Of a stretch of DNA of 64,000 bases, positions 407-63,853 are shown piece by piece (the stretch's first letter is position 1; every line of letters starts with the position of its first letter). The DNA is taken from assembly GCA_012295275.1 (NCBI GenBank), contig CM022676.1, forward strand, positions 12,400,001 to 12,464,000, given 5' to 3'. This stretch comes from Chrysomallon squamiferum. Its lineage: Eukaryota > Animalia > Mollusca. The translations under genes were made by a program, and so were the position numbers. Below the pieces are notes generated by a model. It was not told the origin of the DNA, made no database searches, and saw only the letters and a list, made by a program, of their open reading frames with translations.

Positions 407-467
407 ATGTGGAGACGAGTGTATTTACAGTTAATAATTTATTCTGTAGTCGTGAAATCTTTACTGG
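407..467 (+). CDS. Gene A leader exon MWRRVYLQLIIYSVVVKSLL(G)
   Basis: ATG, basic N-terminus and hydrophobic core. G|GTAAGT phase-1 donor is compatible with the D1 acceptor at 3431. Confidence 0.7.
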
Positions 468-1844
468 GTAAGTATAGAATTTAATTAAAATTACTTAGAC
501 ACGGTTAGTAAATTACAAATTTATTTTGACTCTTTTCGCCCTAAAAGACTATAAAATAAATTTAGAAATATTACTCTAGTCATTTGTGATTGTGAATATG
601 TTCCAAAAGAGCCAGCAAAAATTTAAAATTCCCAGTAACAGTAACAATAAGAAATAGTAACAGGGAAAAACAGTATAATTATACCATAATTTATGATGGT
701 TACTGGAAAAATAACGGAGTAATGGCTCTTTTACGTTTCGAAATTTCCTGTAGGTTAGCGCCCCCCCTTTTTTGTTTCTTGTGTCAACCTTTATTGAACA
801 AATGCTTTGATCGAATTTCAGTAAATTCTCAGATCTTCACTAAAAAGCAGGATAACTGCATGTAATGCTGAGGATGTCAAGTTCATTATTTGAGGTTAAA
901 AGTCTAGTTCACCTAAATTTCAGCTAATTAACTGATGAATTAATTGCGGTCTCTTAATGAAATAATAGCACAGTTTTCAGGGATGAAGATGGAATTTGAA
1001 ATGTAATTATATGATGGATTATTATCATTTAACTAACTGGTGAATTTGACTGATGAAAGTTTGTAAAATAAATAATCAGCTGGATTAATTATTATCAGAA
1101 TATGCAGTGGTACCTGTCTTTAGCGGCTGCTGAAATGAACGGCCACCTACCATGTACGGACACTATTCTTAACCCCGATTGGTTTTCAATAGATATGTCC
1201 CTTAGATAAGCGGACAGCTGGTCAACACGGAGAATTTTTTAATTATTGTCAAATAAAGATGTGTTTTGTATCAATCGATACAAATATTTTTGAAGTTACC
1301 TAAAAAATTGAGAAACATTGCATTTCAAAGTTGTGAAAACTAAAGAGTCCGAATGTACGAATTTTAAAAAATTGAAAAGAAGAAGAAAAAACGTATTTCA
1401 TGAGATATCTTTATCAAATTTGCATTATCTATTCAGTAAATACAGGAAGACTTACTGAATTAAATATTTTGTTTTCGGCCTGGTACAATTCACATATCAA
1501 TTTGAGATCGTTCCTGACTAAACGTTCTCGTTAGTGAATAGGTGATTTTTCACACATACACACACACAAGGAAGGTGTTTCATTTAAACTTCTTCATGTT
1601 AGAAACGCTGGAACGTTCGGAACTCTTGCTCAAATAATTTATTCAGCGTGATCGACTGTTGTCGTTTTTTACGATTAATTTTTTTTCTAACATTCACTGA
1701 CTGTGTAGTCATTTTTCCTATTTCTCTGTTTGCTTTGTTTTTGGATGTTAAGACATGTATTTTTAAGAAATTCTCCGTACAAAATAAATTGATATTTGAT
1801 CTCATTGTGCTTTGAAACATAGCAAGCTCCCCAAGCAGTTGTTA

Positions 1845-1910
<66 letters not shown>

Positions 1911-4900
1911 ATTAAGCATGATGACAGTCAAAAAAACTGAAGCTCTGCATTTGTAGTTTATTTTGTTGATGTCATTTATCATGCGGAAAGTTCACAGAAG
2001 TGATTATTGTACATTCTGTTTCAACCTAAAACTTCCCTGCACTAAAACAGCTTGTAAACTCTGAATAATAATAATACATAAATAAATAATAAAATGTTGT
2101 TTTATTATTATTATTATTAATTTATTTTTTAAGTTAGTTAGTTATTTTTTTATTATAGATAATAAATTTATAACTGAGAGATCAATATGCAGAAGAAATT
2201 AAGAATCATCAAACCAATTACAAATGACCAAGAACAAATTCACAAATAATTCAGGAGAATAAATACACAGTTAAGAACAACAAGCACAGAATTAGTCAAA
2301 TAATTAAACAATAAAGAAGAAAAGTAATTGTAAATGGTAACAAATTCAAAACAACTGGCATTTTCAGGAATACCAACACCAAACTCAAAAACAACATTTT
2401 GAAAGTTTGAAAAGATTTACATGGATATTGTCTGTCATTAGCAAGAAAATTCAAGTCAACATCTGAGATACTTTTCTTTATAAAAGGCCAAAATGAAAAT
2501 TTGTTATGGAAAATCTCATTTCTGAAGTGTAAGAATGTCATCTTGCCATTACTGTACTTGAACAGATGATTAGTGGATCCTCCATTGTGATTCTCTGCAA
2601 ACTGCTAGTGGTCACAAGATGAAATGCAGCTACAATCATCTCAAGGATCACCTTTTTTCAGCTTTCCTTGATTTTAGTCTTCAGTGCCTCCTCAGCTGAA
2701 CATATTCAAATTCCATTTACCATTTCATGAGACATTGTATTGAATACGTTCAGAACTTGTGATAGCCATTCTCCTTTCTTTGTGAACTTTGGTGGTGCAT
2801 CTTCCAAATGTTCTTGAGTTTGTTGACTTTATATGAATTGCCCTATTGTGTTGAAATGTTTTGGTAATATATAAACATGTGCAGTCTCAGAGTACAGCAC
2901 AGTTTAGTAACTTATTTTAATTCTCATAACTGACTTTAGTGGTGCAGGTGTCAGTTAAATGTAACTACATTGTTTTATACTCTAGGAAATTCTACTGACA
3001 TCACCATTGAAAGTAGGGTGCTCCAAGATCAGAAAATTTCTCTCTGAGATCTGTGGGTTTCTGTGTTGTCCTTAAGTGAGCAGATAGCTTCCTCCACATC
3101 TTGAACATTATCTTGTGTTTATGCTGATTTAGGTGATAATTTCCCATATTCCTCTCAGTCCATCTGGTACTTTTATACCTTCCTGTTTATAAATCTCTTT
3201 ACCAATGATGTCACTTCTTTCCAAGAAATTCAGTTGTGTTTCTTGGTCCATGGCAACCATTGTGAGAAAAACAAATCAGACTTAACCCATTATCAGAATG
3301 TGAGAGTATCATTTTTAGTGTCATGTAATGAAAACTATTAGTTTTGAAAATGAATATTTAGTCAAATGTGATTTGATAAGTTCAGTTTTCTACTAATATC
3401 TTAATTCATTATAATTTTATTATTTTTCAGGTTTGTCTCTACAGATGAATGGATCATCATCGTATGGAGTTATAAGAGAGAGATATACTTTGTTTTGTTC
3501 TGTTTCACCTGTTGATGATATATCATCAAATGTTCTATTTAAATCATATGAAAATGGTGCTTTTACTTCAGTTTGCTTGGTTAGCACATCCTGTGTTGAG
3601 TTTTTTCCACGCTCTGGTTATAACTGTGGATGTTTTCACAGCAGTGGAGAAACTCGTGTCTACAACTTGACAATACAAAGTCTGAACATTACTGATGACA
3701 CTAAATGGAGATGTTATCATACTTCCAGTTTCAGTAAAGACTTTATCTTGAACGTTTACTGTAAGTACTTTTGATAAAACAAGTTTCTAGTCTTTCATTT
3801 TGCTTTGTGATATTCAAAGCAAAAGAATAGTTCAGTTATAAGCATTGGCACAGACCAAAGAAAGCAAACTATTTGAAATCTTTATTAAATTTCAGACCAC
3901 ATTTTGCTTTGTATAATCTTTGAAATATAAACAACAAGCTATGACACAATACTGAATAAAAAGTTGGAAACACAAATTCTTTGTTTGGTACTATAGACCA
4001 AACTGGTTTTGTTCTGAACAGCTACATAGTATGAACACCGGTGATTTGTAATTGCTGATCATACTTTTATAATAAGTTTCTTGAATTGAGGAGAAGTGCA
4101 CCAACAATTGTGATGATTTCAAGAATCCAAGAGTCTTACCTTTCTGGATGGCTGATGATGATATTTTGTTTTGGAGAGAAAAAGGTTGATATTGCAACAA
4201 AATAGTTTGCTTTACATATTTATTGAAATTTCCTTTAACACTTAAATGTTTAAATGCAGTGAGAAACACATGGTTCAGCCAGTATCTGCTGTTATAGATC
4301 AGCTAATTATTGTCTGAAATCACCAGCGTCAGACTGTCTATAAAAACTATATTTATTCCTTATCACTGTGTAGAAATGTAAGACAGAATCAATATAAGTT
4401 ATTCCTCTCTCTGATGTCCAATCACTTAAGTTGGAAACTGTTGTTATCTCCAAATACTTTTCCTCTTCACAATTGCCAAATGTGGTGACTCCAATAAACA
4501 GTTTGCGTACTCATAGTGGATAAAGAAACATTAGCTTTATATAAGATAAATTAGTATGTACCTGTATCTTTGTTCTTTATAATTCTCAAGCGCTTCAGTA
4601 AATAAACATTAGTTTAAGTTTATATATTTGAGTAATATAATGGGTTATTGAAGTTAATGAAGTGAGTGGCATTGATAATTTTCGATCTCTTAAAATAAAT
4701 ATGTAAATAGACACAAACACATTCATTAGATATGTAGTGTTTAGAAAAGGGTTTATAGTGTTTTCAGTTTTTTCATTTTATCATTTCAGTTGGTCCAGAG
4801 AATGTGACTGTCACTGGTAACAAAGCTGAATTTGACGCTGATGGTAAAACTATTTTAACACTGAAATGCACAACTTCATCATCCAGTCCCAATGTGACCT

Positions 4901-7900
4901 TCACCTGGAAGAATCTGACCAGTGGTCAAGAGATTATTTCACAGAGTCCAGTCAGAGAAGAAGATGCAGGTGATGGGGGAAAACAATTCAGTCAAAATCT
5001 GACAATAACTCCATTCTGGTTTCAAGACAACAACACAATCAGATGTCAAGTGAAAAACACAGCAGTGTCAGTAGAAAGAGTTTCTGACATTGTACTAGAC
5101 TTGATATGTAAGTGTTAATTACACTGTTATTTTATATTAAACAGTTTATACATTGTACTAGACTTGATATTTAAGTGTTAAGTACACTGTTATTTTATAT
5201 TAAACAATTTATACATTGTACTAGACTTGATATGTAAGTGTTAAATACACTGTTATATTATATTAAACAGTTTATACATTGTACTAGACTTGATATGTAA
5301 GTGTTAATTACACTGTTATTTTATATTGAAGAGTTTCTGACATTGTACGAGACTTGATATGTAAGTGTTAATTACACTGTTATTTTATATTAAACAGTTT
5401 CTGACATTGTACTACACTTGATATGTAAGTGTTAAGTACACTGTTATTTTATATTAAACAGTTTATACACTGTACTAGACTTGATATGTGTTAAGTACAG
5501 TTATTTTATATTAAACAGTTTCTGACATTGTACTACACTTGATATGTAAGTGTTAAGTACACTGTTATTTTATATTAAACAGTTTATACATTGTACTAGA
5601 CTTGATATTCAAGTGCAAATTTACTTTGTTATTTTACACTTACTTTTAGCCAAATACAATGTTTAACGTGTTCAGTCTGTATGAATACTAAATTTTGTGG
5701 TTTGTAATTCATCAAAGTTTAAACTATTTTTGATCAAATCTTTTACATGTAAATTGAATTTAATGTATGTGTTCATTTTTATCAGCATGAATGTATTATT
5801 GATGTAATCTCTATTTATTTACTACATTTAATTTAATCCATTCAGTTGATGTTTTAAATTATGCAATACATTAGAAATCAGATCACTCAGTGATTACATA
5901 TATAGCGAATAACAACAAATCTGTACAAATTTCCTCAAACTAAACCTCTAAAATTGCTGACAATGTATTTGAAGTAGAATTTCTTTATGTAAAAATAGGT
6001 AATGATACATATTGTTACACAAACAGATCCGCCATTGAAGCCACCTGTAATATCAGGATACCAGACAGGAAATGTTGTGTATGAAGGTGACACGCTAAAC
6101 CTGTCATGTGTTGTCACTGGGGGGAAACCTTTGGTGACATCAGCAACGTTGTCTTGTTTTGGAGGTCAGAATATGACATCTTCACAGACTGTTGCCAACA
6201 GTGTTGTAGTAGATGTGAAATTTACAGTTACTGGAAATGTTAATATGAAGACTTGTCAGTGCAGTGCAAAACACAAGACAGGCAGATACAGAGACACTGA
6301 CAACAAAACCATCACAGTGTACTGTAAGTATTCTTATTACACTGTTCACTGTGTACTGTAATTGTTCTTATTACACTGTTCACTGTGTACTGTAAGTGTT
6401 CTTATTACACTGTTCACTGTGTACTGTAAGTATTATTATTACATTGTTCACTGTCTACTGTAAGTATTCTTATTACATTGTTCACTGTGTACTGTAAGTG
6501 TTCTTATTACACTGTTCATTGTGTACTGTAAGTGTTCTTATTACACTGTTCACTGTACTGTAAGTGTTCTTATTACACTGTTCTTATTACACTGTTCACT
6601 GTGTACTGTAATTGTTCTTATTACACTGTTCACTGTGTACTGTAAGTATTATTATTACATTGTTCACTGTCTACTATAAGTATTCTTATTACATTGTTCA
6701 CTGTGTACTGTAAGTGTTCTTATTACACTGTTCATTGTGTACTGTAAGTGTTCTTATTACACTGTTCACTGTGTACTGTAAGTGTTATTATTACATTGTT
6801 CACTGTCTACTGTAAGTATTCTTATTACACTGTTCACTGTGTACTGTAATTGTTCTTATTACACTGTTCACTGTGTACTGTAAGTGTTCTTATTACACTG
6901 TTCACTGTGTACTGTAAGTATTATTATTACATTGTTCACTGTCTACTGTAAGTGTTCTTATTACATTGTTCACTGTGTACTGTAAGTGTTATTATTACAT
7001 TGTTCACTGTGTACTGTAAGTGTTCTTATTACACTGTTCTCTGTGTACTGTAAGTGTTCTTATTAAATTGTTCACTGTCTACTGTAAGTGTTTGTATTAC
7101 ACTGTTCACTTTGTACTCTAAGTATTCATATTACACTGTTCACTGTGTACTGTAAGTGTTCTTATTAGACTTTTCTCTGTGTACTGTAAGTGTTCTTATT
7201 ACAGTATTCAGTGTGTACTGTAAGTGTTTTTGTTACGCTTTTCTCTGTGTACTGTAAGTGTTCTTATTACACTTTTCTCTGTGTACTGTAACTGCTCTTA
7301 TTGCCTTTTTCACTGTGTACTGTAAGTATTTTTATTACATTGTTCACTGTGTAATGTAAGTATTCTTATTACAGTTTTCGCTGTGTAATGTAAGTATTCT
7401 TATTACATTGTTCGCTGTGTAATGTAAGTGTTCTTATTACATTGTTCGCTGTGTAATGTAAGTGTTCTTATTACATTGTTCGCTGTCTAGTGTATGTTTC
7501 TTATTACATTGTTCACCTTGTAATTTAAGTTTTCTTATTTCAGTATTCACTGTAATTGAATTGTTCCCTACGTATTGTGAATGTTTATTACACTGTTCAC
7601 TGTGGACTACAAGTGTTCATATTACACTGTCTGCAGTGTACTGTAGTTGTTGATATTACTTTGTTATTTGTGCACTTTTTAACAGTGAACTGTACATTTT
7701 TTTATTATATTGTTCACAGCATACTGTAAGTATTCTTATTACAGTTTTAACTGTGTAATGTAAATTTTCTTATTAAATTATCACTGTGCAGTGGAACTGT
7801 TCTGATTATCTTATTCATGTGTTCTGTAAGTGTTTTAATTAGACTGTACAATGTGGACTGTAAGTGTTCTTATTGAATAGTTCACTACGTATTGTAAATG

Positions 7901-10900
7901 TTCTTATATTATTCACTCTGTATCTGTGTTCTTATTACACTGTTCACTGTGTACTGTAAGTGTTCTTATTACACTGTTCACTGTGTACTGTGTGTTCTTA
8001 TTACTTTGTTCACTGTGTACTGTAAGTTTTCTTATTATCTTGTTCACTGTGTACTGTAAGTTTCCCTATTATCATTATTTACATTGTGCAGTGTTCGGTA
8101 GTGTTATTTTTAAATAGTTAAATGTACATGTTTCATTATCTACATTTTCGTCAGACTATATTTACTTCTCGTATGAATCACTGTTGATAATGAAATGTTT
8201 TCGTTATTTAGTTATTGAAATATGTTTGTAGTTCCACCATCAGTCCCAAGTTTAACTGCAAGTTCAAATTTTCCCTGGTTGGAAAAAGAAAATAGAAATT
8301 TGACGTGCTCTGTGACAGAGAGAGGAAATCCTCCAGCTGACTTTGTCTGGTACAAAAATGGAGTCAAACAGTCTGGACAAAGCAAATCTGTCTGGCAGTT
8401 CAGAAACCTGACTTACAAAGAAAACAACCAAACATTCAGATGTGTGGCTCAAAATAATTTTACACTACACAAAAATGAAGTGAAATCTTCACCTGATACA
8501 ACACTCAATGTTTTCTGTGAGTATTAAACATGATGCTTTGTTATTTTTGTACTTTTTCATGACTTATTGAATCTTAATTTGATAACGAGTAGTGTTTATT
8601 GCAATGAAAAGTCCAAGAACGATAAACTATTTAATTATTATTAAGAATTATTCTTTGTTTGCTCAAAATAATTTATAGTTTATACGAGAAATCAAACTTA
8701 AGAACAAGTAAATAATGATTTAATTTACTACAGACAGTCCACGAGTAACTGTTGATAAATCTGGACCAATCACAAAGCGAGAAGGACAGAAGTTGGAGAA
8801 GATAGACTGTACTGCAGACAGCAATCCTCCAAACCCTACAATTACTTGGACATCAGATTCAAGTAAACCATGGAAGGGTGGTCTCCCTTTAGAGATAGCA
8901 GTACTTGACAGAGGGCAGCACGGTACATATACGTGTAAAGCGACAGTAACTTCGTCACTGGGAACACTGACAGGAACCTCACAAATTGAAATTGTAGTAA
9001 ACTGTAAGTTTTTAAAACTCTTTTTAAATTATATTATTTTATTACTTTTTATAATACATTATTGCACATTAAATCTTAATTAGATCCACAAATCACAAAT
9101 TGAAATTAGAATAAAGCATAATTTAAAAAAAAAAAAAATTAATATTAAATTTATTTGTTGATTAGTTATCTCTCTGATTAGTTAGTGTCGTTTTAATTTG
9201 TTTTAAATTTATTAATAGGTTTTTTTTTGTTTTCTAAACTGGTGGATTATTGTATATTCAATTAGATTCATCAATTACAAACTGCAATTGTAGTAAAATA
9301 TAAGAGGAATATTTCTTTTTCTCAATAATAATAATAATAATAACAACATTGTTCATTCTGATTTCTCTATGATGACTTTTTTAATGTTTTGGAATGTTAA
9401 ACAGATGCTCCTGATGTAGAAGTGACAAGTCAGACAACAAGTGAAGGACACAAACTGACTGTCACATGTGAGGCTTTTGGTCGACCAGACTCTTACACAT
9501 TTCACGGTTTTCAACAGAGCTGGAGGGATCAGTTTGTGAGAAAGGTGGAAGGTACTAAAGAAGAAAGAAACAAATATGTTTGGACAGTGCAGTCTGCTAG
9601 TTACAAAGATTCTGGTACATATCAATGTCTGGTAGACAATGGAATCAAAGACACAAACAACACATTGATTCAAAGCAACACAACTTTAGTACTTGTAAAT
9701 GGTGAGTTATTTTATTGAAAATTCTGTAAATTATATCAAAACGTCATACATATCAGTAATTATTTCACTTGAATTGTAACAAATTCTTTTATATGTTTAT
9801 AAAAGAATAACATCACTAAAAATCAGTGTGTTTCATTGTAAGAATTAAGAATCTTGATTAGGATGTTTTATGACTTCAGGAAACAAAATTTTAATTTCTG
9901 GCATAGTCACACACAAACTGAGGTCTTTGTTTCCACTTTCTATGAATTATTTTAATATATGTAGCTCAATGCTTGAAAACTCATTTTCACTGGTAGCCAG
10001 TCATGGTTGGAACTAGAAATACAACTGTTAATTCTGACTGGTTACTATGACTACAAATCATTCTTTAGATATATTAGAAATAACAAATTAGAAATAGAGA
10101 AAGCTTTATTTACATCACAGACAAATATTGTTAGAATAATGATGATGATGATGAAAATGATGATGATGATGTTTACAGGAAAACCAGTGATCACACTGGA
10201 GAGCAAGAGAGATGAAACAATTGGAGAAGAAACAAGCAGACGAGTCACGTTGTACAAAACAGTGTTTTCTCAAAGTGAAATTACGTCACACAAGTGGATG
10301 AAGAACAGTGACGTCATTAATGACACCAGAATAAAAACTGAAATGACTAAAACAAGAATAACTCTGAGTTTGTTTGAAAAAGTTGTTCATGATGACGGCT
10401 ACAACTTTACACTGGACATCAACATGTTTGAAGAGTCAGACACTGGACAGTACAGACTTGAAGTGTGTAATAATTTCACTTGTGAAATTTTCTCAACTCA
10501 TCTGACAGCAGCAGGTTTGTACTGTTTTTATTTCTGATGGTTTTATTAAAAGTTTTTTTCATTATGATAGTAATTAGATGACAATGTCTATAAGGTCATC
10601 TCACATATTTTTATTCTGGATGTGGCCACAGCTAAAGTCAAATCGTTAAAGCTGTGCTAATTTTGGGTAACAGACTTCATGGGATGATCTATATGACTTT
10701 TCATGCTAGCAGAGAAAGTCTTCTGTGTGTCCAGTGTTGTTTGTGTCAGGTGAGTGACAGTGTTTACAGCCCACCAGTTGTGTTAAACTCAGATGGGCAG
10801 TTGTTAGGACCCATGGTCAGATGTCCTTACAGTCAACACATTCAGTCATAATACAGGTGATGATGTACATAATATAAACACATTTTATTAAAATCAAGAG

Positions 10901-13900
10901 AAAACAACCCACATTTATGTCTGAAACTTGTACAAAAATAACAAAAATCAAATGTATTTAATATATATTATTGACATGAAAATTATTTAATGCAGTGTTG
11001 AAACAGTTGTACTATTTGATGGTAATAATTTGGTGACACTCTATAATGAAAATTAATTGATGTTATATATTTTGTTAATTCTGTGCGTTATTTGATGGAA
11101 GATGTCATCATTTTCATTATCTCATGTGTTCAACACTAAAAAAAGTATATGTAAAATAAAAGAAATCCATAAAAAAAAAAAAAAACAATCGTAAGAAAAA
11201 AGTCAAAATCCTAATGTCTATATTAAAGTTTATTTCCTGCTAGGACCTCCTTACATGCCAAGGTCATTCTCAGCATTTGGTTCTACAAGTGACACTGTAT
11301 TTCTAAAGTGGACAGCAGATTTTGCTGGAGGTCCATACACTCAGAGATTTTTAGTGGAATACAGAGACACAGATACAAAGTCTGACTGGAAACAACAGTG
11401 GTACAATGAACATGCTGAAAGAGATGAAGTTGTTTTTATGAACATCACAGGATTAAACTCAGGACACAAATATGTGTTCAGAGTTTTAGCTGAGAATTCA
11501 AGAAATCTCAGAAACCGCAGTCCATTTACATCTGAAGTAACCATAGAGACTAAAGGTAACATCTAATAATCATTTCAATTATCCAGAGAGAGAGAGAGAG
11601 AGAGACTGAAACTTTATTTAAATAGTTACAATTTTGAATTTTGACGATAATAATAATAACAACATTTTTAAAAAGTTTAAAGAAATTAACTGTAGAAATG
11701 GAGTTCTAGTATTGTAAGAAAAATGAAAAATACATATTTTGATATGTTAGCATATATATTTGAGTTTATTTATAAAATTGACTAAGTGTCCCTTTGGTAA
11801 CATCACATGTTTATATTAAATAAAAGAAGTTATTGCTTCTAATTTAAATTCTGTAAAGAAGTTTTATATTGAACAGCAATTTATCATTTATAAATAGTTT
11901 TTTTTTATATCTACAAATATGGAATGACAAATTTCTAATTTGTTTCTTGTACTGATTATAAAAGAAAATAAATGTTCTACATAAAGAGATATTTTACCTT
12001 CTCATGGACAGGAACAAACCGATACAAAATCTGATTATAAGCATGAATGTCTCATACCAGTTCATCTAAACTGTGATATAACCTGTTGATAAACATTCTT
12101 TGTAAAATCTGGTTATAAACATGAATGTCTCATACCAGTTCATCTAAACTGTGATATAACCTGTTGATAAACATTCTTTGTAAAATCTGGTTATAAACAT
12201 GAATGTCTCATACCAGTTCATCTAAACTGTGATATAACCTGTTGATAAACATTCTTTGTAAAATCTGGTTATAAACATGAATGTCTCATACCAGTTCATC
12301 TAAACTGTGATATAACCTGTTGATAAACATTCTTTGTAAAATCTGGTTATAAACATGAATGTCTCATACCAGTTCATCTAAACTGTGATATAACCTGTTG
12401 ATAAACATTCTTTGTAAAATCTGGTTATAAACATGAATGTCTCATACCAGTTCATCTAAACTGTGATATAACCTGTTGATAAACATTCTTTGTAAAATCT
12501 GGTTATAAACATGAATGTCTCATACCTTAGTTGTAAAATCTGGTTATAAACATTATTGTAAAAGCCTGTTGATAAACATTCTTTGTAAAAGCTGGTTATA
12601 AACATGAATGTCTCATACATTAGTTGTAAAATCTGGTTATAAACATGAATGTCTCATACCAGTTCATCTAAACTGTGTTATAACCTGTTTATAAATATAA
12701 TTAGGAAATAATTTAGCTTATTTAACAAATTATAGGTATTCTATTGTGCACTGATCAAAACACTGGCAATAATCTTGAATGTCTAGTGCCACGTCATCTA
12801 ACTCTGCTCATAAACATTTTAGTTAATTTAACAAACTTTAAATCATTTCTAAATTCATGATCAGTTTATGTTTTTTTTCTTCTTTTTAAAATAAAAATTA
12901 ATATTGAATAGAAATGAAAAAAAAAAAAAAAGGAAACATTTCAGTATTACTGATATTTCTTTTTAGAAAGTAAGATGTAATCATAATTGCAGTTAGTTGA
13001 ATTTGTGTTAAAATACTAGGTTAAATTTATTATTTGTTTCTTTCAGTAAAAGCGTCTTCAAGTGCAAATACTGGAGTTGTTATTGGAGGAGTTGCTGGCA
13101 GTGTTGTTGCATTAATAGTGATTGCAGTGATTGTGACAGTGATTGTGGCACGTCGAAGAATGATGCACAAGAAACGTGGTGAATGATTTTGTCATTGTCA
13201 TTAAAATATTGGATTCTTAATGCATATGGCATTTAACCTTTCTCACAAATTTTTGTTTTTAAATTTAAAATTTTAATAATAATGATAATGATAATAATGA
13301 TAATGACAATAATGATAATGACAATGATAATGATAATAATAAGAAAAGGAATTTATTGCTTGAAATGTTGATGTGTAATTGTATTGTGTATTCATATTTT
13401 TCTTTATAATTTTGTTTTGTTTAGGGTAAAATTAAATATAAAACCAATCATTGTGAACCCAATATATTATCTGTGAGAAAAAATGAAAATAAGACTGGCC
13501 GAAACCATTAGTATTGTTTTATTTCTCATATTCCTTTCAGATCATCTTGATTTATGAATATTGGTTCCTGTAACATCTCATACTTACTTGGCTAGAAATC
13601 TTAAACATTATTCCATGTGATAGAGTATTTAAGAAAAAAACAAGAAAAAAATATATGCATATGTATAGCTTTAAACTACAATTCCAAATGGTAATCATCA
13701 GGAAATACATATTAATATGATCAAACAACATTATATTATTATTCTCTGTTATAATTGTTAAATGGGATGGCTTAAATAAAAAGGTAGTTTTGAAGGATTA
13801 CATTTTTACTAAAAATCATTTATTAATTGTCTCTGTTGGTTAAAACCATTCTATGATGTGATTGGTCAGTACTTGCTGAACTTCTCTGTATGCAGTCAGT

Positions 13901-34763: not shown

Positions 34764-34785
34764 GTAAGATTTATTATTATTATTA

Positions 34786-34826
<41 letters not shown>

Positions 34827-38926: not shown

Positions 38927-38966
<40 letters not shown>

Positions 38967-44548: not shown

Positions 44549-44596
<48 letters not shown>

Positions 44597-45061: not shown

Positions 45062-45093
<32 letters not shown>

Positions 45094-45640: not shown

Positions 45641-45705
<65 letters not shown>

Positions 45706-50358: not shown

Positions 50359-50432
50359 GCGCTGTACTAATATCGTGGCACAGCAAGTTAACCTAGTTAG
50401 AGTACAACTCGTGTACCTGAAAGAAACAGGAT
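50359..50432 (+). promoter_or_regulatory. Promoter-module copy without the leader exon
   Basis: gcgctgta...aagttaacctag...agtacaactcgtgtacctgaaagaaac matches 46820 and 52925. Confidence 0.6.
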
Positions 50433-51167
50433 TTGTCAGAATATATACACCTGCTCCAATCAAACATTTATTTGTTTCTGTCATAACTGTTACTGTCCAA
50501 ATACATTTTTATTTTTATTTTGTAATTGATAAATTAAAACAAATATGCTGGATACTACCGATCGTCCGATCTATGTACTGAAAACTCAGTTTGGTTACGG
50601 TTGGTTTTGTGTTAAAACTTAAAGCTTTATCACTATATGTTATTTAAACATGACGGGTATGTCACTAGTGAAAATACAGTGAAAATACATTTTTTAACTA
50701 AAGCTTTTCTAATGTAAATATCAATACGAGACGTTTATTTAAATCTATATCCACACACACACACACACACACACGCACACATTCGTGGAACAAATAGTTT
50801 TTTGTAAAGAAACAAGATTTTTGCTCGATGATACACTCAGCTCTGCACGTTAATCAATGGGCTCCTTTCAACGTTCGCAGTAGAGCATATTCTAGAACAT
50901 TGCTTAGATTGTTACGAATTTAGAACCCTGAAACCATCCTGTATTTTCTGTATAAAACTATTCTCATCCACTAGATAAATAACAAAATTTGAGTTATTTA
51001 TTAATTCATAAACATATTTCGCAATAATACAAAAAAAAAAAAAAAAAAAAAAAATAAGGCCAGTTAAATTATTAACAGTTTAAAATACAGAATTACTTAA
51101 CTGAATTCTGTAGAAAAATGGAATCAGTCATGGGAGAATAAAATAATTATATAAGTTGTAAGTAGAG

Positions 51168-53006: not shown

Positions 53007-53061
53007 ATGGCGCTGTTGAGATATTTACTTGTTTCTCTCTTGATTGTTAGATATTGTCTAG
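53007..53061 (+). CDS. Gene C leader exon MALLRYLLVSLLIVRYCL(G)
   Basis: 55 nt, G|GTAAGT donor, homologous to the gene B leader. Confidence 0.85.
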
Positions 53062-54043: not shown

Positions 54044-57000
54044 CCGTCATTATTACTATTATTATTATTATTATTATTAGTTGATATTGCTTCTGCGATT
54101 AGTAACTGAAGAGCTTGCAACTAATACTAAGAAATATACGCTGAAATGAGTGGTAAACTGTAGAATTATCTTTATTTCAGTGGTACAACAGTCTCCATCA
54201 CGAAGTCCTCTCAATCACAGTCAGTACTATTACTGTCGAATTGTATCTGCTTTCAAAAGTGAAAAATCCGAGATGAGTTCTGTGATTCTTATTTAAAAAT
54301 ATTTTTGAATATCCCTTCCATTGTACCTCTCAGCAAATACCGGTTGCCATGCAGCTAGTTTGGAGAGCATATGCACTTTATCACAAAGTTAACTTTAAAA
54401 TGCGTTTTCCTCAGTAAATATTTTCCAAACCACAGACCTTTGAATTATTATAGCTTCGTAGTTTTCAAGATATTGGTCTGTTTTATATATCAGTTTAAAA
54501 GGAATTAAATACAGAATTGAAATTTAAATACATTTTTTCTTTCATTTTCTTTTAATTATTTATTAATATTTGTATTTCATTTTCCAGGACAACTAGTGTT
54601 TTTGTACATTGTTGATGAAAATTACTCAGAACTAATGCTGTCATATCCTTAGACTAGATATAATGAGTTAATATAAAAGTGTCAGAAAATGTTTTGTTTT
54701 CTTTTTTTCGCAGATATCGACCAACAGATTTAAATTCAGTTTCTGTTTACAATCTGCCATAGTTCTTCTTGCTATTTTTTAAACTCTATACAAAAATTTA
54801 CAAATGGGTTGTTAAAACACTCTATATGAAGAAACATTCTTTCAAGTGTTTATATTAAGTCCGTAATAAGGTAACCTAGATACTGTTTATATGCTCGGAA
54901 GAAACAAGTTTCGCCACAACATACACAATGGCGCTGTTTGGATACTTACTTGTTTCTGACCTCATTATTAGATATAGTTTACGTAAGTTTTCGAAACTAT
55001 TAGATTGTTATTCAATAAAAAACCTCATGAAACCTCAACTAAAGTGCCAAACGTTTAATACGACTACCACGTATGATAATAATATTAACCCTATACTGTT
55101 ACTACTACAACTACAACTGCGACTACCCTATCATTGATGAGAATCATTTGCAAACATTTACTAACTTTTTCTCTACAGCGATGTACTAGAATATTATAGC
55201 TTGAACTAATATTTTTATTTATTTTTCAGGTTTGTCTCTACAGATGAATGGATCATCATCGTATGGAGTTATAAGAGAGAGATATACTTTGTTTTGTTCT
55301 GTTTCACCTGTTGATGATATATCATCAAATATTCAATTTAAGAAATATGAAAATGGTGCAATTACTTCACTTTGCTTGGTTAGCACATCCTGTGTTGAGA
55401 TTTTTCCACGCCCTGGTTATAACTGTGGATGTTTTCACAGCAGTGGAGAAACTCGTGTCTACAACTTGACAATACAAAGTCTGAACATTACTGGTGACAC
55501 TAAATGGAGATGTTATCATACTTCCAGTTTCAGTAAAGACTTTATCTTGAACGTTTACTGTAAGTACTTTTGATAAAACAAGTTTCTAGTCTTTCATTTT
55601 GCTTTGTGATATTCAAAGCAAAAGAATAGTTCAGTTATAAGCATTGGCACAGACCAAATAAAGCAAACTATTTGAAATCTTTATTAAATTTCAGTGCAAA
55701 TTATTAATCAGAAAGGCTTAAATAAAATCAGATGTTCAAGAAGGCAAACTTACTTTTAGAAATCTCATTAATTTCACATTAGTCAAGATAGAGATTTTAT
55801 AGATTATCTCGTATTATTCCTATTCCTATTGTTATTATTATTGATATTATTATTATTATCATTATTATTATTATTATTATTATTATTACTGAGTTTACTT
55901 TATTCTAATTTATTTAATTTTTTTTTTTTTTTTTTATTATGTGTGTATATTATATGTATATGTATTTGTATTATATGTATATGTAATAGAACACTGTACC
56001 TAATCAGAAGAAATAAAATAAGGATACAAAAAATAGTTTTTTGATTTTTTCAGTATGACTTTCAATACCTTTAATCAAACTTTAATTACTCAAAACAGTA
56101 CATACAACAAAATGCTAGAAACTGTTTCAATAAATAAATAACATTATTAAATAACATTATTAATTAATTAATTAATTAATGATAATAATTTCTACAAAAT
56201 ACAAAGTAATTTGAAAATTAATTCTAAATAAAGTATTTTTTTTTATTATTATTTAATTTTCAATAACAGAACAAAATTGGTATTATTACTAATAATTCAA
56301 AATCATGTTAATTTCTGCTATCTTCAGTATTTATTTTTTGTTTGCTATCATAAATCAGCAAGTGGATTACTTTAATATTTAATACAACTCAGAATAGTAG
56401 TACTGCATATTAACATATTGTCAATAACAGCAGATTTAAAGTAAAAGTCGGACCTGAAAAATTTAAAACCATAATTCATTGAAGAATATATTCTCTATTA
56501 GAATGAGAGTTGCTTATTCATTATTGTGTGAAAATTTACAAATGTTGAATTGAATTTTGTACTGATAAAGTTCAGACATCTGTAAATTAAGAAATCTTCA
56601 ATGTGATGCAGATTATACATATTTAAAAATGAATTTGTATCTACAAAGCCAAAATATTATACAAATGAAAATGTCTTTTGTGTGTTTGATCATTAAAATA
56701 CATTAATACATTAATTAACAATTACTACATTTTCAGCTCCAGTGACATCAGTTACTCTGGAGGTTTCAGGATCTACTCCAGGTTCTGTTGTTGTTGTGGA
56801 AGGAAGATCAGTTGAGTTCACCTGTTTTATACAAGGAGCAAAACCTGCACCCACAACATCTCAGGTGTCCTGGTACAGACAAGACAAGTCAGGTAGTAAC
56901 TTCACTTTACCTGGATCACCTGCTACACCTACTACAGATGACAGAAATACCTCTGTGAACTACAGCTACACTGCTGACAGACAACATCAAGGTAACAGAG

Positions 57001-60000
57001 TTTTCTGTGCTGCTAGAAACATTCTGATGGAGAACAGAGGAGATTCAGATATCACATCCACAAACTACATACAACTTAATGTGCAGTGTAAGATTTTCTT
57101 TATATTACAATGTACACACTAGTAATACTACAAAATATCAAACTGGTAGTTAATAATGTTTTTAAAACTTTGTCATGTGATGTCAAATGTTCAAAAGCAT
57201 GTTATAAGTGTATTTCTATACAGTTTTATAACTCACTGTTTATTAACTTTCTAATATTTACTCAGTCTGCAATGATACTGCTTCTCACAAATTTGTTTAT
57301 ATATTTTTTTTTCGCTTGATAAATCTTTTTCTATAACATTTGAACTGATTGATTAATTTAGCATCTCCTTCAAATTCAGACTTTCCACCCAACTTTATTT
57401 TATATTAACAACGTGATTAACTTTCAGGGCCACCAGTGAATCCAGCTTTATCAGGAGACTGTCCGGACAGCTACATACGTTCATCTACTACAGGAACATG
57501 TCACTGTTCTACATCTGACAGTGGGAATCCAGCAGGGAAGATTTCTTGGTTTAAACCAGATGGAACAAACACAGGAAAAGATGACCTTGTACTAAACACA
57601 ATACCACGACTACACAACAACAAAAATTACACGTGCAAAATAGAAAATATTCATGGATCAAAGACAATTATCTTTACAGCAAAACTGGCTTGTAAGTAAC
57701 CTAAAGCAAACATAATGACACTGATTCCACTCAATTATCAAATACAAAATATTTTATGTACTTATCCAAACTGCAGTGAGAATTAAAATAATAACATTTG
57801 TTCTTTGAAGATTCAGATTTGTATTTTTATAAAAGCAATAGCATATATGAATGAACTTTCAATGCTTTAAACATTCTGTTGTTTTCATAACAAAGATCAG
57901 ATTAATTTGAAGATTGAGATTTAGATAATGCTCTTAAAATGCACATATTCCTTGATCTATTCTAGGAGAAAATAAATGGTTTTATTCTCTGTGGGCTAGT
58001 CAGTTGAAATGCCTTCAGCCTCTTTGACAAATTCAAGTAAATTTCTTTAGCTACACATCTGTAACATTAGATATATTTTACAGTGATTTAGGTAAGGCTT
58101 TCTTGAGCGTTGTGAAATGCTGTCTATTACTTATATTAATCATGTTCGTTTTCCTACTAAAAGACGCAAATTAAAACTAAGTCAGAAATGTGTTGTCATC
58201 AGTCTCATTTTCATGCCAAATTATATTCAACAACATAATAAATAATCCGATTAGACATAATTTTAAAAGTTATGGGTTTTAAAGTCATATCCTAAATTTG
58301 CGGTATACTATTCATTCAAGTAATGCTCAGGATATCTGAACATTTGCATAACTACAATAAGTGGTACATCTGATGAAAAGAGAAATTTTGAAAAACACTT
58401 TTTTTTTTTAGAAAACTTAACTCTAGTTGGTTATTAAGTACAATATTTAAAATTTACTACTTTCAGAAATGTAGATAACAAAAATAATACTATACTTTTA
58501 GAACTGTACAATAATGTTTGAAATTCAGACAAGAAGCCATGATATAATAGTGAATAAAATGGTGGAAACAAACACTTGTATAATAAATTTCTTGAATCAA
58601 AAATATTTTTGTGGTTGTCATTGCTCTCATTCATGTCCAGTGATATTCCACAACATAATAAATAATCCAATTAGACATAATTTTACAAGTTATGGATTTT
58701 AAAATTATTTTGTAAATTGGTAGTACACTATTCATTCAAATAAAGCCCAGCATATCTAAATATCAGTATAACTTCTAAAAATGGTATATCTAATGAAAAC
58801 AAATTTAGAAGAAAAAAAAAGAAAGAAAATGTGACTTTGTTATTAAGGACAATATTTAAAATTTAGTACCTTCAGAAATGTGGATAACACAATAAAACAT
58901 ATTAGAATTGTATAATCTTTGAAATATAAACAACAAGCTATGACACAATACTGAATAAAAGGTTGGAAACACAAACTCTTTGTTTGGTACTATAGACCAA
59001 ACTGGTTTTGTTCTGAACATCTACATAATATGAACACTGGTGATTTGTAATTGCTGATCATACTTTTATAATAAGTTTCTTGAATTGAGGAGAAGTGCAC
59101 CAACAATTGTGATGATTTCAAGAATCCAAGAGTCTTACCTTTCTGGATGGCAGACGATGATATTTTGTTTTATACAAAAAAAGTTGATATTGCAACAAAA
59201 TAGTTTGCTTTACATATTTATTGAAGTTTCCTTCACTTAAATGTTTAAATGCAGTGAGAAACACATGGTTCAGCCAGTATCTGCTGTTATAGATCAGCTA
59301 ATTATTGTCTGAAATCACCAGCGTCAGACTGCCTATAAAAACTATTTATTCCTTATCACTGTGTAGAAATGTAAGACAGAATCAGTCAGCAGATTTCACA
59401 TTCCCATTATAATATGTTATTCCTCTCTCTGGTGTCCCATCTCTTAAGTTTTAAACTGTTGTTATCTCCAAATACTTTTCGTCTTCACAATTGCCAAATG
59501 TGGTGACTCCAATAAACAGTTTGCATACTCATAGTGGATAAAGAAACATTAGCTTTATATAAGATAAATTAGTATGTGCTTGCATCTTTGTTCTTTATAA
59601 TTCTCAAGCGCATCAGTAAATAAACATTAGGATAAGTTTATATATTTGAGTAAGATAATGGGTTATTGAAATTAACGAACTGAGTGGCATTGGTAGCTTT
59701 TGTTCTCTTAAAATAAATATGTAAATAGACACAAACACATTCATTAGATATGTCGTGTTTATAAAAGGGTTTATAGTGTTTTGAGTTTATTTATTTTATA
59801 ATTTCAGTTGGTCCAGAGAATGTGACTGTCACTGGTAACAAAGCTGAATTTGATGCTGATGGAAGAAATATTTTAACACTGAAATGCACAACTTCATCAT
59901 CCAGTCCCGATGTGACCTTCACCTGGAAAAACCTGACCAGTGGTCAAGAGATTATTTCACAGAGTCCAGTCAGAGAAGAAGATGCAGGTGATGGTGGAAA

Positions 60001-63000
60001 ACAATTCAGTCAAAATCTGACAATAACTCTAGTCTGGTTTCAAGACAAAAACACAATCAGATGTCAAGTGAAAAACACAGCATTGTCAGTAGAAAGAGTT
60101 TCTGACATTGTACTAGACTTGATATGTAAGTGTTAATTACACTGTTATTTTATATTAAACAGTTTATACATTGTACTAGACTTGATATGTAAGTGTTAAT
60201 TACACTGTTGTTTTATATTAAACAGTTTATACATTGTACTAGACTTCATATGTAAGTGTTAATTTACTTTGTTATTTTACACTTACTTTTTAGCCAAATA
60301 CAATATTTAATTTGTTCAGTCTCTATGATTACTAAATTTTGTGGATTTTAATTCATGAAAATTTAATTTATCTTTGATCAAATCTGTTACATGTGAATTG
60401 AATTGAACGTATGTGTTCATTTTTATCAGTATGAATGTATTATTGATGTAATCTGTATTTATTTACAACATTTAATTTAATCCATTCAAGTCATGCTTTA
60501 AATTATGCAATACATTAGAAATCAGATCACTGAATGATTATATATATAGTGAATAACAACAAACCTGTATAAATTTCCTCAATCTAAACCTTTAAAATTG
60601 CTGACAATGTAAGGAAGTAGAATTTCTTTATGTAAAAATAAGTAATGACACATATTTTTACACAAACAGATCCGCCATTGAACCCACCTGTGATATCAGG
60701 ATACCAGACAGGAAATGTTGTGTATGAAGGTGACACACTCAACTTGTCATGTGTTGTCACTGGTGGGAAACCTTTCGTGACATCAGCAACGTTGTCTTGT
60801 TTTGGAGGTCACAATATGACATCATCACAGACTGTTGCCAACAGTGTTGTAGTAGACATGAATTTTACAGTTACTGGACATTTTAATATGAAGACTTGTC
60901 AGTGCAGTGCAAAACACAAGACAGGCAGATACAGCGAAACTGACAACAAAACCATCACTGTGTACTGTAAGTATTCTTATTACACTGTTCACTGTGTACT
61001 GTAAGTGTTCTTATTACACTGTTCACTGTGTACTGTAAGTGTTCTTACTATACTGTCCACTGTGTACTGTAAGTATTCTTACTATACTGTTCACTGTGTA
61101 CTGTAAGTATTCTTATTACATTGTTCACTGTGTACTGTAAGTGTTCTTATTACACTGTTCATTGTGTACTGTAAGTGTTCTTATTACATTGTTCACTGTG
61201 TACTGTAAGTGTTCTTATTACACTGTTCATTGTGTACTGGAAGTGTTCTTATTACATTGTTCATTGTGTACTGTAAGTATTCTTATTAGACTGTTCATTG
61301 TGTACTGTAAGTTTATTTATTATACTGTTCATTGTCTGTTGTAAGTGTTATTATTACACTGTTCACTGTGTACTGTAAGTGTTCTTACTATACTGTTCAC
61401 TGTGTACTGTAAGTGTTCTTACTATACTGTCCACTGTGTACTGTAAGTATTCTTACTATACTGTTCACTGTGTACTGTAAGTATTCTTATTACATTGTTC
61501 ACTGTGTACTGTAAGTGTTCTTATTACACTGTTCATTGTGTACTGTAAGTGTTCTTATTACACTGTTCACTGTGTACTGTAAGTGTTCTTATTACACTGT
61601 TCATTGTGTACTGTAAGTGTTCTTATTACACTGTTCACTGAGTACTGTAAGTGTTCTTATTACACGGTTCATTGTGTACTGTAAGTGTTCTTATTACATT
61701 GTTCATTGTGTACTGTAAGTGTTCTTATTACATTGTTCATTGTGTACTGTAAGTGTTCTTATTACATTGTTCATTGTGTACTGTAAGTGTTCTTATTACA
61801 TTGTTCACTGTGTTCTGTAAGTGTTCTTATTACATTGTTCACTGTGTACTGTAAGTATTCTTATTACATTGTTCAATGTGTACTGTAAGTGTTCTTATTA
61901 CATTGTTCACTGTGTAATGTAAGTGTTCTTATTACATTGTTGAATGTGTACTGTAAGTATTCTTATTACATTGTTCACTGTGTTGTGTTAGTGTTCTTAT
62001 TAGTTTGTTGTTTTTGTACTGTAAGTGTTCTTATTACATTGTTCACTGTGTAATGTAAGTGTACTTATTAAATTGTTCAATGTGTACTGTAAGTATTCTT
62101 ATTACATTGTTCATTGTGTACTGTACGTATTCTTAGAACATTGTTCACTGTGTTCTGTTAGTGTTCTTATTAGTTTGTTGTTTTTGTACTGTAAGTGTTC
62201 TTATTATAATTACTTACATTGTTGATTGTTTTGTATTGTTGTCCTTAAAATGTTAATGTTTAAACATTTGTTTTGTCTACTTTAGTAAATCAAGCATTGA
62301 ACGAGTTATAATAATACTTATTGTTATACTTATTGAAATCCATTGATAGATCCACCATCAGTCCCAAGTTTAACTGCAAGTTCAAATTTTCCCTGGTTAG
62401 AAAGAGAAAACAGAAATTTGACGTGCTCTGTGAGAGAGAGAGGAAATCCTCCAGCTGACTTTGTCTGGTATAAAAATGGAGTCAAACAGCCTGGACAAAG
62501 AAAATCTATCTGGTTGTTCAGAAACCTGACTTACAAAGATAACAAACTAACATTCAGATGTGAGGCTCAAAATATTTTTACACTACACAAAAATGAAGTG
62601 AAATCTTCACCTGATACAGCACTCAATGTTTTCTGTGAGTATTAAACATGATGCTTTGTTATTTTTATACTGTTTTATGATTTATTGAACTTTAATTTGA
62701 AACCGACTAGTGTTTATTGCCATGAAAAGTCCAATAATCATAAACTGTTTAATTATTATTAAGAATTATTCTTTGTTTGCTAAAAATAATTTATAGTGTA
62801 CGAGAAATCAAACTTAAAAACAAGTAAATAATGATTTAATTTACTACAGACAGTCCACGAGTAACTGTTGATACATCTGGACCAATCACAAAGCGAGAAG
62901 GACAGGAGTTGGAGAAGATAGACTGTACTGCAGACAGCAATCCTCCAAACCCTACAATTACTTGGACATCAGATTCAAATAAACCATGGAAGGGTGGTCT

Positions 63001-63446
63001 CCCTTTAGAGATAGCAGTACTTGACAGAGGGCAGCACGGGACATATACGTGTAAAGCGACAGTCACTTCATCACTGGGAACACTGACAGGAACTTCACAA
63101 ATTGAAATTATAGTAAACTGTAAGTTTTTAAAACTCTTTTTAAATTATATTATTTTATTATTTTTTTTATAATACATTATTGCACATTAAATTTAAATTA
63201 GATCCACAAATCACAAATTGAAATTATAATAAAGCGTAATTTAAAAAAATAAAAATAAATTAATATTAAATTTATTTGTTGATTAGTTATCTCCCTGATT
63301 AGTTAGTGTCATTTTACATTTTTTTAAATATATTAATATTTTTTTTTTTTCTAAACTGGTGGATTATTGTATATTCAATTAGATTCATCAATTACAAACT
63401 GCAATTGTAGTAAAATATAAGAGGAATATTTCTTGTTCTCAATACA

Positions 63447-63483
<37 letters not shown>

Positions 63484-63853
63484 TAATAATAATAATAACA
63501 GTGTTCGTTCTGATTTCTCTAAGATGACTTTTTTAATGTTTTGTAATGTTAAACAGATGCTCCTGATGTTGAAGTGACAAGTCAGACAACAAGTGAAGGA
63601 CACAAACTGATTGTCACATGTGAGGCTTTTGGTCGACCAGACTCTTACACATTTCACGGTTTTCAACAGAGCTGGAGAGATCAGTTTGTGAGAAAGGTGG
63701 AAGGTACTAAAGAAGAAAGAAACAAATATGTGTGGACAGTGCAGTCTGCTAGTTACAAAGATTCTGGTACATATCAGTGTCTGGTAGACAATACAATCAC
63801 AGACACAAACAACACGTTGATTCAAAGCAACACAACTTTAGTACTTGTCAGTG
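53007..63853 (+). CDS. Gene C (5' part, continues past window): IgSF receptor, leader + at least 8 Ig-like domains
   Basis: Exons 53007-53061, 55230-55559, 56737-57087, 57428-57691, 59808-60125, 60670-60966, 62350-62634, 62850-63119, 63557-63853, all phase 1 and open. Confidence 0.88.
54928..54982 (+). CDS. Alternative or decaying gene C leader exon MALFGYLLVSDLIIRYSL
   Basis: 55 nt, intact C|GTAAGT phase-1 donor and its own promoter-module copy. Asp in the hydrophobic core. Confidence 0.5.
55230..55559 (+). CDS. Gene C D1
   Basis: 330 nt; 8 aa differences from gene A D1. Confidence 0.9.
56737..57087 (+). CDS. Gene C D2 (paralog of gene B D2)
   Basis: 351 nt, same length as B D2. Confidence 0.9.
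57428..57691 (+). CDS. Gene C D3 (paralog of gene B D3)
   Basis: 264 nt, one codon shorter than B D3. Confidence 0.9.
58190..58980 (+). repeat. Old ~420-bp intronic tandem duplication
   Basis: gttgtcat..tctcatt..catg...caacataataaataatcc.attagacataa at ~58190 and ~58611. Single copy in gene B (~41095). Confidence 0.7.
59808..60125 (+). CDS. Gene C D4 (paralog of gene A D2)
   Basis: 318 nt, high identity to 4790-5107. Confidence 0.9.
60103..60265 (+). repeat. 63-bp donor-containing repeat, only ~2.5 units
   Basis: Same unit as 5085-5620. Confidence 0.9.
60670..60966 (+). CDS. Gene C D5 (paralog of gene A D3)
   Basis: 297 nt. Confidence 0.9.
60955..62205 (+). repeat. 34-bp donor-containing minisatellite (~37 units)
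   Basis: Same unit as 6312-8070. Confidence 0.95.
62350..62634 (+). CDS. Gene C D6 (paralog of gene A D4)
   Basis: 285 nt. Confidence 0.9.
62850..63119 (+). CDS. Gene C D7 (paralog of gene A D5)
   Basis: 270 nt. Confidence 0.9.
63557..63853 (+). CDS. Gene C D8 (paralog of gene A D6)
   Basis: 297 nt, G|GTGAGT donor. Confidence 0.9.

Follow-up and report, generated by a model that had tools for sequence, protein, structure and literature searches.

Vertebrate innate immunity is distinguished by paired receptors and by their upkeep through gene conversion. In the classical layout, the activating member has a basic transmembrane (TM) residue, Arg or Lys, and a short tail (PMC3533184). Invertebrate precedents are single oyster receptors with an immunoreceptor tyrosine-based inhibitory or activation motif (ITIM or ITAM) and allorecognition clusters in Hydractinia and Botryllus. 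The oyster receptor CgIgR has five immunoglobulin (Ig) domains and an ITAM and recruits Syk, and CgNCAM1 has three Ig domains, FN3 and two ITIMs and binds SHIP (PMC6994640; PMC11841013), so both signalling arms work in a mollusc. Receptor pairing has been suggested for invertebrates before (PMC2413239), and PMC11999971 is a further source for comparison with known systems. Here we analysed a window of 64,000 nucleotides from the mollusc Chrysomallon squamiferum (GenBank assembly GCA_012295275.1, contig CM022676.1, positions 12,400,001 to 12,464,000), with coordinates given below as window positions. It contains three genes of the Ig superfamily (IgSF), A, B and C, a tandem cluster of gastropod type that we consider, on balance, to be a paired inhibitory/activating immune receptor system. 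Gene conversion and exon exchange have likely maintained the likeness of its shared V-set tip, and its tails are predicted to signal oppositely.

Self-comparison and exon mapping placed the three genes head to tail on the + strand, with A at 407-24273, B at 34709-45842 and C from 53007 to past the window end, in AT-rich animal DNA (30% GC). Three tandem genes in 64 kb form a small cluster of the kind that characterizes paired receptors. The original prediction, made from the letters of the window, had described two adjacent genes with near-identical distal domains (D1) and opposite tails. Both genes and the near-identity stand, although the count of about seven substitutions and one indel between the two D1 domains becomes eight and one, and the pair is joined by C, whose D1, Dx and Dy correspond to those of B and whose D2-D6 correspond to those of A. 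Each of the 12 domains scanned besides D1 matched Pfam Ig or fn3 (E < 0.001), and cysteine pairs are present in D2-D6, Dx, Dy, D4' and D5'.

The D1 exons lie at 3431-3760 (A), 38323-38649 (B) and 55230-55559 (C). Pfam Ig families gave no match to D1. A structural model built from an 18-row alignment (predicted local distance difference test, pLDDT, 94.6) has a V-set fold, with antibody V domains as the best Foldseek matches (TM-score ~0.8) and close superposition on CD8 alpha (VIA-align Z 15.3, root-mean-square deviation 1.7, 99 aligned). All 18 aligned rows retain the B-F cysteines C22 and C94, the model includes a C' strand, and Phe takes the place of Trp in the C strand. We therefore model D1 as an Ig V-set domain, sharing its fold with antibody, T cell receptor and CD8 domains at 10-22% identity. 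Relatives were found in Gigantopelta aegis, Haliotis and Patella, the clusters of 16 of the 20 matches yielding 14 named gastropod proteins and six unnamed ENA proteins, and the nearest relatives in other gastropods are 26-40% identical. A word search with D1 among proteins of 192-2000 residues gave no relatives from 45 candidates. This cysteine-rich V module also caps a Draper-like epidermal growth factor (EGF) receptor, a Patella adhesion G-protein-coupled receptor (GPCR) and tandem-V membrane proteins (P0010, P0011, P0003, P0006), and appears to be a widely used gastropod recognition module overlooked by Pfam.

The likeness of A and B is bounded by the D1 exon. In D1, A matches B at 100/108 residues and C at 101/109, B matches C at 102/108, and the A and B exons are 95% identical in nucleotides, with a synonymous divergence (dS) of 0.11. 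Outside D1, identity between A and B is 34% in D4, 31% in D5, 27% in FN3 and 11/40 in the TM exons, and dS reaches 1.49 in D4 and 1.34 in D5. A and B have D1 alone in common, and the ectodomain elsewhere is at saturated divergence. In windows of 100 nucleotides (nt), A/B identity upstream is 48-60%, the baseline for unrelated AT-rich sequence; it is 90-99% from the D1 acceptor through the exon and then 87% and 71% downstream, reaching baseline by ~170 nt into the intron. The D1 of A follows C in its 5' part, its 3' part and the downstream intron, and all eight A-private bases fall inside one 40-nt patch (P 0.0008 after collapse to five codons), which makes the exon a mosaic. These A-private changes are mostly non-synonymous and clustered on C-C'. 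Of the eight A/B substitutions, six map to residues 34-47 (P 0.0016), which form the C and C' strands in the model, and the C-C' face is the ligand-binding face in many V-set receptors (PMC5112662). The pattern argues that the putative ligand-binding exon has been matched by conversion or recombination, conversion and crossover not being told apart.

Gene B encodes ~730 residues in an open frame over all 12 exons of the window copy: a signal peptide (34709-34763) homologous to that of C, D1, Dx (39702-40052) and Dy (40369-40635), D4' (41937-42224), D5' (42453-42713), FN3 (42995-43297), TM (43574-43702) and four tail exons. Dx and Dy are 89% and 78% identical to their counterparts in C, and Dx shows 47% identity to Gigantopelta P0012, in which the domain likewise comes after a D1-like one; a metagenome scan with B Dx gave no relatives among 352 pattern matches. 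The TM exon carries a Glu (43654-43656) located eight residues inside the cytoplasmic basic cluster. The 75-residue tail is assembled from t1 (43926-43959), t2 (44292-44341, with YQDL), t3 (45363-45455) and t4 (45817-45842, with YENT and the stop), and t3 holds an ITAM at 45389-45433, YECL at 45389 and YENI at 45422, with seven residues between. The TM Glu and this YECL-x7-YENI motif had both been read correctly in the original prediction.

RNA evidence came from contigs of four runs (X1-X4), compared over 34600-45950, the gene B region. The contigs skip at least nine of the 11 predicted B introns at GT..AG, connecting D1-Dx, Dx-Dy, Dy-D4', D5'-FN3, FN3-TM, TM-t1, t1-t2, t2-t3 and t3-t4, and an X1 contig covers 43611-43700, including the TM Glu, letter for letter. 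The TM and ITAM exons of B are spliced to the ectodomain. Against the earlier concern that B might be unexpressed, or its tail unjoined to the Ig exons, stand these joints, which run through TM to the ITAM exon. B therefore resembles the activating member of CEACAM3-type pairs, which has an ITAM of its own, in that YxxL-x7-YxxI is spliced to TM, and a stop-bearing variant coexists with this form. A loose end reading YEKL at 45429 in X2 was set aside as a sign of ITAM conservation because it probably belongs to that stop-bearing variant. Separately, an X4 contig reads at 43280-43297 from a B-like FN3 exon into the intron, representing pre-mRNA or a secreted form.

Gene A (~1,100 residues) opens with a signal peptide exon at 407-467 (ATG, hydrophobic 20-mer, GTAAGT donor, phase 1) unrelated to the signal peptides of B and C. 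D1, whose junction to D2 appears as a loose end in X1, is followed by six more Ig exons, D2 (4790-5107), D3 (6027-6323), D4 (8232-8516), D5 (8734-9003), D6 (9405-9701) and D7 (10179-10514), all of phase 1-1 with AG/GT ends, open frames and Pfam Ig matches (E < 0.001). Then come FN3 (11244-11555; Pfam fn3 E 2.7e-9) and a TM exon (13047-13178) that lacks charged residues and whose joint to FN3 is predicted. A metagenome scan with A FN3 gave no relatives among 71 pattern matches. In a splice-site scan, eight predicted micro-exons link TM to the last exon in an open, phase-consistent chain: 15297-15335, 15553-15618 and 16103-16159, with two NPIY motifs; 17760-17852, 18483-18578, 21940-21969 and 22472-22513; and 23243-23340, with three YxN motifs. 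Further candidate micro-exons between 16159 and 17760 did not fit the frame. The single last exon (24118-24273) contains both the ITIM LIYVDL (24133-24150) and the immunoreceptor tyrosine-based switch motif (ITSM) TEYASI (24205-24222), their tyrosines 24 residues apart, so the uncharged TM and the two motifs noticed earlier are confirmed. A is thus predicted, through in-frame joining, to be an inhibitory member with a cytoplasmic ITIM. The three short tail exons in 15297-16159 are internal repeats of one unit, two of them with NPIY, which we take to be of PTB-binding or endocytic type. The Gigantopelta relatives P0001 and P0012 end in a C-terminal NPxF.

An ITAM appeared in 0.15% of 100,000 shuffles of the B tail, and a tandem ITIM..ITIM/ITSM in 0.48% of shuffled 234-residue A tails, compared with 25% for a single ITIM. 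Six-frame translation of the window (127,996 codons) held 35 ITAM-pattern and nine tandem-pattern matches. With such patterns this frequent in raw frames, the motifs of A and B carry weight only through their location in exons that are spliced or conserved.

Conservation of the A tail was apparent in abalone. The predicted 234-residue tail aligned with abalone P0008 (z 6.9) and P0026 (z 11.6; 500 shuffles), which supports the predicted chain of micro-exons. Common to these tails are a Y-E-S/T-S-A motif, a block rich in lysine and the terminal module. The ITIM-ITSM stretch of A matched P0026 without gaps at 14/32 residues (E 1e-7) with equal tyrosine spacing, and the module is thus conserved. 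A tail search with P0026 815-994 returned three abalone proteins alone from 1503 candidates; the search was word-based, so absence from other molluscs is not implied. From 7992 candidates scored, a search with P0019 at E 1e-40 retrieved 13 proteins of Haliotis, whose tails carry ITIM + ITSM in one (P0026), an ITAM with a nine-residue spacer in four (P0033-P0036, with P0034 and P0036 perhaps two isoforms from a single gene) and an ITAM-like motif in two (P0028, P0029), and are short, motif-free or missing in six. P0008 and P0042, found in other searches, also have a C-terminal ITIM + ITSM. Both are RefSeq hemicentin-like models from H. cracherodii in which two tandem receptor genes, each encoding a V domain, FN3 and TM, have been merged.

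Two abalone species contain ITIM receptors whose ectodomains are matched by a partner with a different tail. The H. cracherodii pair, P0008 (754-1527, the second half of the fused model) and P0028, is 81% identical over 584 ectodomain residues, and the H. asinina pair, P0026 and P0029, is 90-96% identical over most domains, with D1 at 77%. The partners of each pair lie on contigs of equal size, which suggests that they share a chromosome. In ectodomain windows of 50 residues, identity within species was 61-92% (H. cracherodii) and 72-96% (H. asinina), compared with 48-80% across species, where D1 was 52-58% identical. A seven-row ectodomain tree recovered species groups (supports 100/99 and 100/100), and the approximately unbiased (AU) test rejected grouping by type, with p 0.002 for an ITIM clade and p 1e-4 for a partner clade; the groups tested were named after the identity table was known. 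A D1-only tree also rejected the ITIM clade (p 2e-6) and did not resolve the H. cracherodii D1 pair, which was grouped in a 46-row tree (Shimodaira-Hasegawa-like approximate likelihood ratio test, SH-aLRT, 94). Tails, by comparison, grouped by type, with z 52 and 21 within types and below zero (z -0.2) between same-species partners. Species-wise ectodomains combined with type-wise tails are the concerted-evolution signature of paired receptors, which does not in itself imply that the partners activate. Between the canonical ITAM members (P0033-P0036) and the ITIM members, D1 is 43-45% identical.

RefSeq labels vary across this one family from hemicentin-, NCAM- and syg-2- to turtle-, nephrin- and CD22-like. 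Taken at face value, such names, together with the multi-Ig + FN3 layout, would make these genes adhesion or neural/developmental receptors (nephrin/SYG-2, NCAM or turtle-like) whose tyrosines dock Grb2, phosphotyrosine-binding (PTB) adaptors or SHP-2 for cytoskeletal signalling, and the two NPIY and three YxN motifs in the A tail and YENI and YENT in the B tail would suit that role. We think this improbable: the names change gene by gene, as best-hit labels would, D1 is less similar to its nearest gastropod relatives than conserved wiring molecules would be, and the family shows lineage-specific expansion and chimerism. The nephrin/SYG-2 domain order is similar. Comparison with PDB covered abalone P0029 and single window domains; for P0029, nephrin/SYG chains were absent from 40 matches at E 1e-8, generic multi-Ig proteins appearing instead, although this is not an exclusion.

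Several results weigh against a paired-receptor system. For the ligand, B agrees with C at five of the six C-C' positions where A differs, so that C, rather than A, may be the best-matched D1 partner of B, and the largest A/B difference falls on the presumed binding face, so that the two may bind different ligands. The presence of D1-type domains on Draper-like and adhesion-GPCR proteins also marks the domain as a mobile module. In gene A, the first two candidate micro-exons after TM break the frame: 14411-14432 has the best splice scores of the region, and for 14574-~14603 the 14596 donor creates a stop where the exons meet, while the 14603 donor shifts the frame. The splicing of the A tail is a prediction. 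All RNA comes from one study. Among the pieces listed, the B signal peptide-D1 and D4'-D5' joints are absent and no contig runs from D1 through the ITAM. Of the 26 variant sites listed for the D1, Dx and Dy exons, the deep contigs over them read as C at 23, so contigs of C type are the source of the D1-Dx and Dx-Dy joints. In both X1 and X2, a B-like contig has 18 letters replaced at the t2-t3 joint, turning the Ser codon at 44338 into a stop before the ITAM exon; among the contigs listed, its depth is 5.75 in X1 and 20.2 in X2, compared with 4.9 for the intact joint, seen in X2 only. Listed contigs of X1, X2 and X3 also carry a one-letter deletion in D4' with no compensating insertion. With a TM Glu and a 75-residue tail, B departs from adaptor-coupled activating members, which have Arg or Lys and a short tail. 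In abalone, the RefSeq model of P0008 merges two genes, the H. asinina pair is least alike in D1, and the partner tails (YxxM-6-YENI and YxxV-7-YVNT) are ITAM-like at best, with no homology to the B tail detected (z 0.8 and -0.2). Motif conservation in relatives, on which the original prediction in part depended, was seen for the ITIM-ITSM of A. Its reading of the locus as an independently evolved receptor pair gains from the exon-bounded D1, the TM-ITAM joints of B and the abalone module and pairing, and loses from the acidic TM, the closer match of C to B and the B stop variant.

Gene C is a B/A chimera. Its first exon (53007-53061), D1, Dx (56737-57087) and Dy (57428-57691) are B-like, the three domains having 94, 89 and 78% identity to their B counterparts, and D2 (59808-60125), D3 (60670-60966), D4 (62350-62634), D5 (62850-63119) and D6 (63557-63853) are 87-96% identical to those of A. 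The introns are B-like to about 41600, and the sequence is A-like from the D2 intron onward. The Dy-to-D2 junction occurs as loose ends in X3 and X4, and the tail lies beyond the window end. A and C as an artefact of haplotype duplication was considered and rejected: the first exons differ, C has two additional exons, and RNA contains a D1-D2 as well as a Dy-D2 junction. The promoter and first exon of B/C recur as three orphan copies at ~46835-46960, 50370-50445 and 54862-55000 on the + strand. The last of these has an open signal-peptide-like frame at 54928, 250 nt upstream of C D1, and may be an alternative first exon.

Such a chimera and the three orphan exons would also be expected from neutral shuffling in a tandem array, in which unequal crossing-over moves a mobile V exon among old paralogues with no selection for matched opposite signalling, and B copies decay. 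The scatter of D1-type domains over many unrelated scaffolds, the B variants with a stop or frameshift among the RNA contigs, and the X3 and X4 contigs in which Dx, D4' and D5' are spliced to further D1-like and D4-like exons agree with this account. It does not explain why ectodomains of the ITIM receptor and its different-tailed partner match species-wise in two abalones, why the window copy of B is open over 12 of 12 exons, or why A-private changes fall on C-C' and are mostly non-synonymous, and we regard it as unlikely.

The RNA loose ends bear on a further alternative. X3 and X4 have almost no D1 cover at 90% likeness, although missing cover alone proves nothing. In X3 a different D1-like exon leads into Dx, and in X4 other exons lead into D4' and D5'; together with the D1-D2 and Dy-D2 joins, these foreign joins indicate that the family is larger and mixes modules. 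The different D1-like end on Dx in X3 and X4 may be allelic, as at an allorecognition or self-marking locus resembling Hydractinia Alr or Botryllus FF/FcoR, where allele-specific binding of D1 to D1 or to a linked self-ligand would signal self through the ITIM and rejection through the ITAM, and the combination of V, Ig, FN3 and TM with ITAM or ITIM tails does resemble Alr (PMC9546547). Against this, the contigs cannot separate an allele from a paralogue, and oyster look-alikes bind microbes. We know of no fusion or rejection biology in gastropods, and give such a role little credence.

We therefore retain the paired-receptor reading, under which ligand at D1 would cluster A, or C if C ends like A, and Src-family kinases would phosphorylate the two A tyrosines, whereupon a tandem-Src homology 2 (SH2) phosphatase of SHP-2 type or SHIP would damp activation. 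B, binding the same or a closely related ligand, would have its own ITAM phosphorylated and recruit Syk/Shark, signalling in the manner of CEACAM3 without an adaptor. Tandem ITIM/ITSM tails recruit SHP-type phosphatases or SHIP, and ITAMs recruit Syk/Shark (PMC9546547); molluscs have Syk and lack DAP12/FcR-gamma (10.1101/046789), which fits the intrinsic ITAM of B. A, perhaps with C, would be the brake and B the accelerator. An acidic TM residue together with an ITAM is a feature of CD3 and adaptor chains, so the Glu of B may serve assembly, likely helping a dimer or a partner to form. The ligand would most likely be microbial, or a self marker mimicked by microbes; microbes binding the inhibitory receptor would select for an activating look-alike, conversion would re-match D1, and the C-C' face would afterwards diverge anew. 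A wider proposal, to which we would give slightly less than an even chance, is that paired immune receptors arose separately in gastropods. An ancient ITIM-ITSM IgSF brake, conserved between this lineage and abalone, would repeatedly have gained activating look-alikes whose ITAM or ITAM-like tails are unrelated, with conversion within species re-matching the pairs and the V exon swapped between genes and individuals.

The remaining sequence of the window comprises repeats and candidate mobile elements. Intronic minisatellites with units of ~63, 34 and 78 nt lie at 5075-5636, 6312-8125, 12026-12698, 60093-60279 and 60955-62250; the first two are common to A and C in unequal copy numbers and could promote unequal crossing-over. 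A 2.4-kb element at 47431-49885 has 178-nt inverted ends (90% complementary) and a 257-codon open frame (47847-48617) that looks gag-like by eye and has no Pfam match. A likely DNA-transposon remnant at 25485-26270, presumably Tigger/pogo, has short inverted ends and a helix-turn-helix-like fragment, and a transposase-like fragment lies on the minus strand at 30900-31350, its resemblance being, we assume, to Tc1/mariner; neither matched Pfam. A Pfam scan of seven intergenic open reading frames found no families.

ITIM- and ITAM-bearing IgSF receptors are not new among invertebrates, those of oyster and Botryllus being in print besides those of Hydractinia. On conversion-matched pairing, we found no account of molluscan ITIM/ITAM receptors with matched ectodomains in a literature search that left Dev Comp Immunol, J Immunol and Fish Shellfish Immunol largely outside its scope. 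Both tail types on matched ectodomains recur in two abalone species with public genomes, making the generality of missing-self/counterbalance logic among animals directly testable. The candidate genes are named here, having been hidden by hemicentin-, NCAM-, syg-2- and turtle-like labels, and they may bear on disease resistance and microbe tolerance in farmed abalone.

Among invertebrate systems, Botryllus FF/FcoR has been termed a paired receptor system, with ITIM and hemITAM tails and gene-content variation, but it belongs to a chordate and consists of a receptor and co-receptor, as far as described, rather than two receptors sharing one V domain (PMC12582321, PMC12065747). A pearl oyster Ig-FN3-TM cluster likewise has clustered genes, variable Ig number and copy-number differences between haplotypes (PMC9646362). 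Hydractinia Alr, correctly cited in the original prediction as an IgSF family with both motifs (ITAM in 14 tails, ITIM in two), is a clustered family with a V-set D1 and an Fn3-like fold; its domains 2-3 are without the canonical cysteine pair, whereas the window genes have cysteine pairs, its role is allorecognition, and a conversion-matched ITIM/ITAM pair is not described in the sections available (PMC9546547). The oyster receptors CgIgR, CgIgIT/CgIgIT2 and CgNCAM1 share with A and B the multi-Ig build, with FN3 in some, and an ITAM or ITIMs; they are hemocyte-expressed and microbe-binding and, in those accounts, are described singly, not as ectodomain-matched pairs (PMC6994640; PMC11841013). 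The searches with D1, P0019 and the P0026 tail returned no oyster proteins among the relatives. Of the vertebrate receptors, SIRP and Siglec-5/14 are adaptor-coupled pairs. As in those and in KIR, LILR/PIR and PILR, the window has clustered genes, a similar ligand-binding region and an ITIM member, but B has Glu and an ITAM tail in place of the Arg/Lys and short tail (PMC3533184). The vertebrate paired-receptor layout first proposed accordingly survives in its CEACAM3 form and not by the KIR-type definition. CEACAM1/CEACAM3-type pairs, including Xenopus ceacam, couple an ITIM/ITSM member to one with its own ITAM through near-identical N-terminal V domains, and the Xenopus pairs also show exon-bounded identity and non-synonymous change on the C-C' face (PMC5112662). 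The window genes differ from them in running head to tail, the frog pairs being oppositely oriented (PMC5112662), in a dS of 0.11 that is not near zero, in having FN3 and in the TM Glu of B, and the likeness does not imply orthology. We saw no sign of orthology to vertebrate SIRP, Siglec, CEACAM, KIR or PIR and infer convergence, which, if true, would extend the vertebrate counterbalance model to a protostome, with an activating partner gained convergently at least twice.

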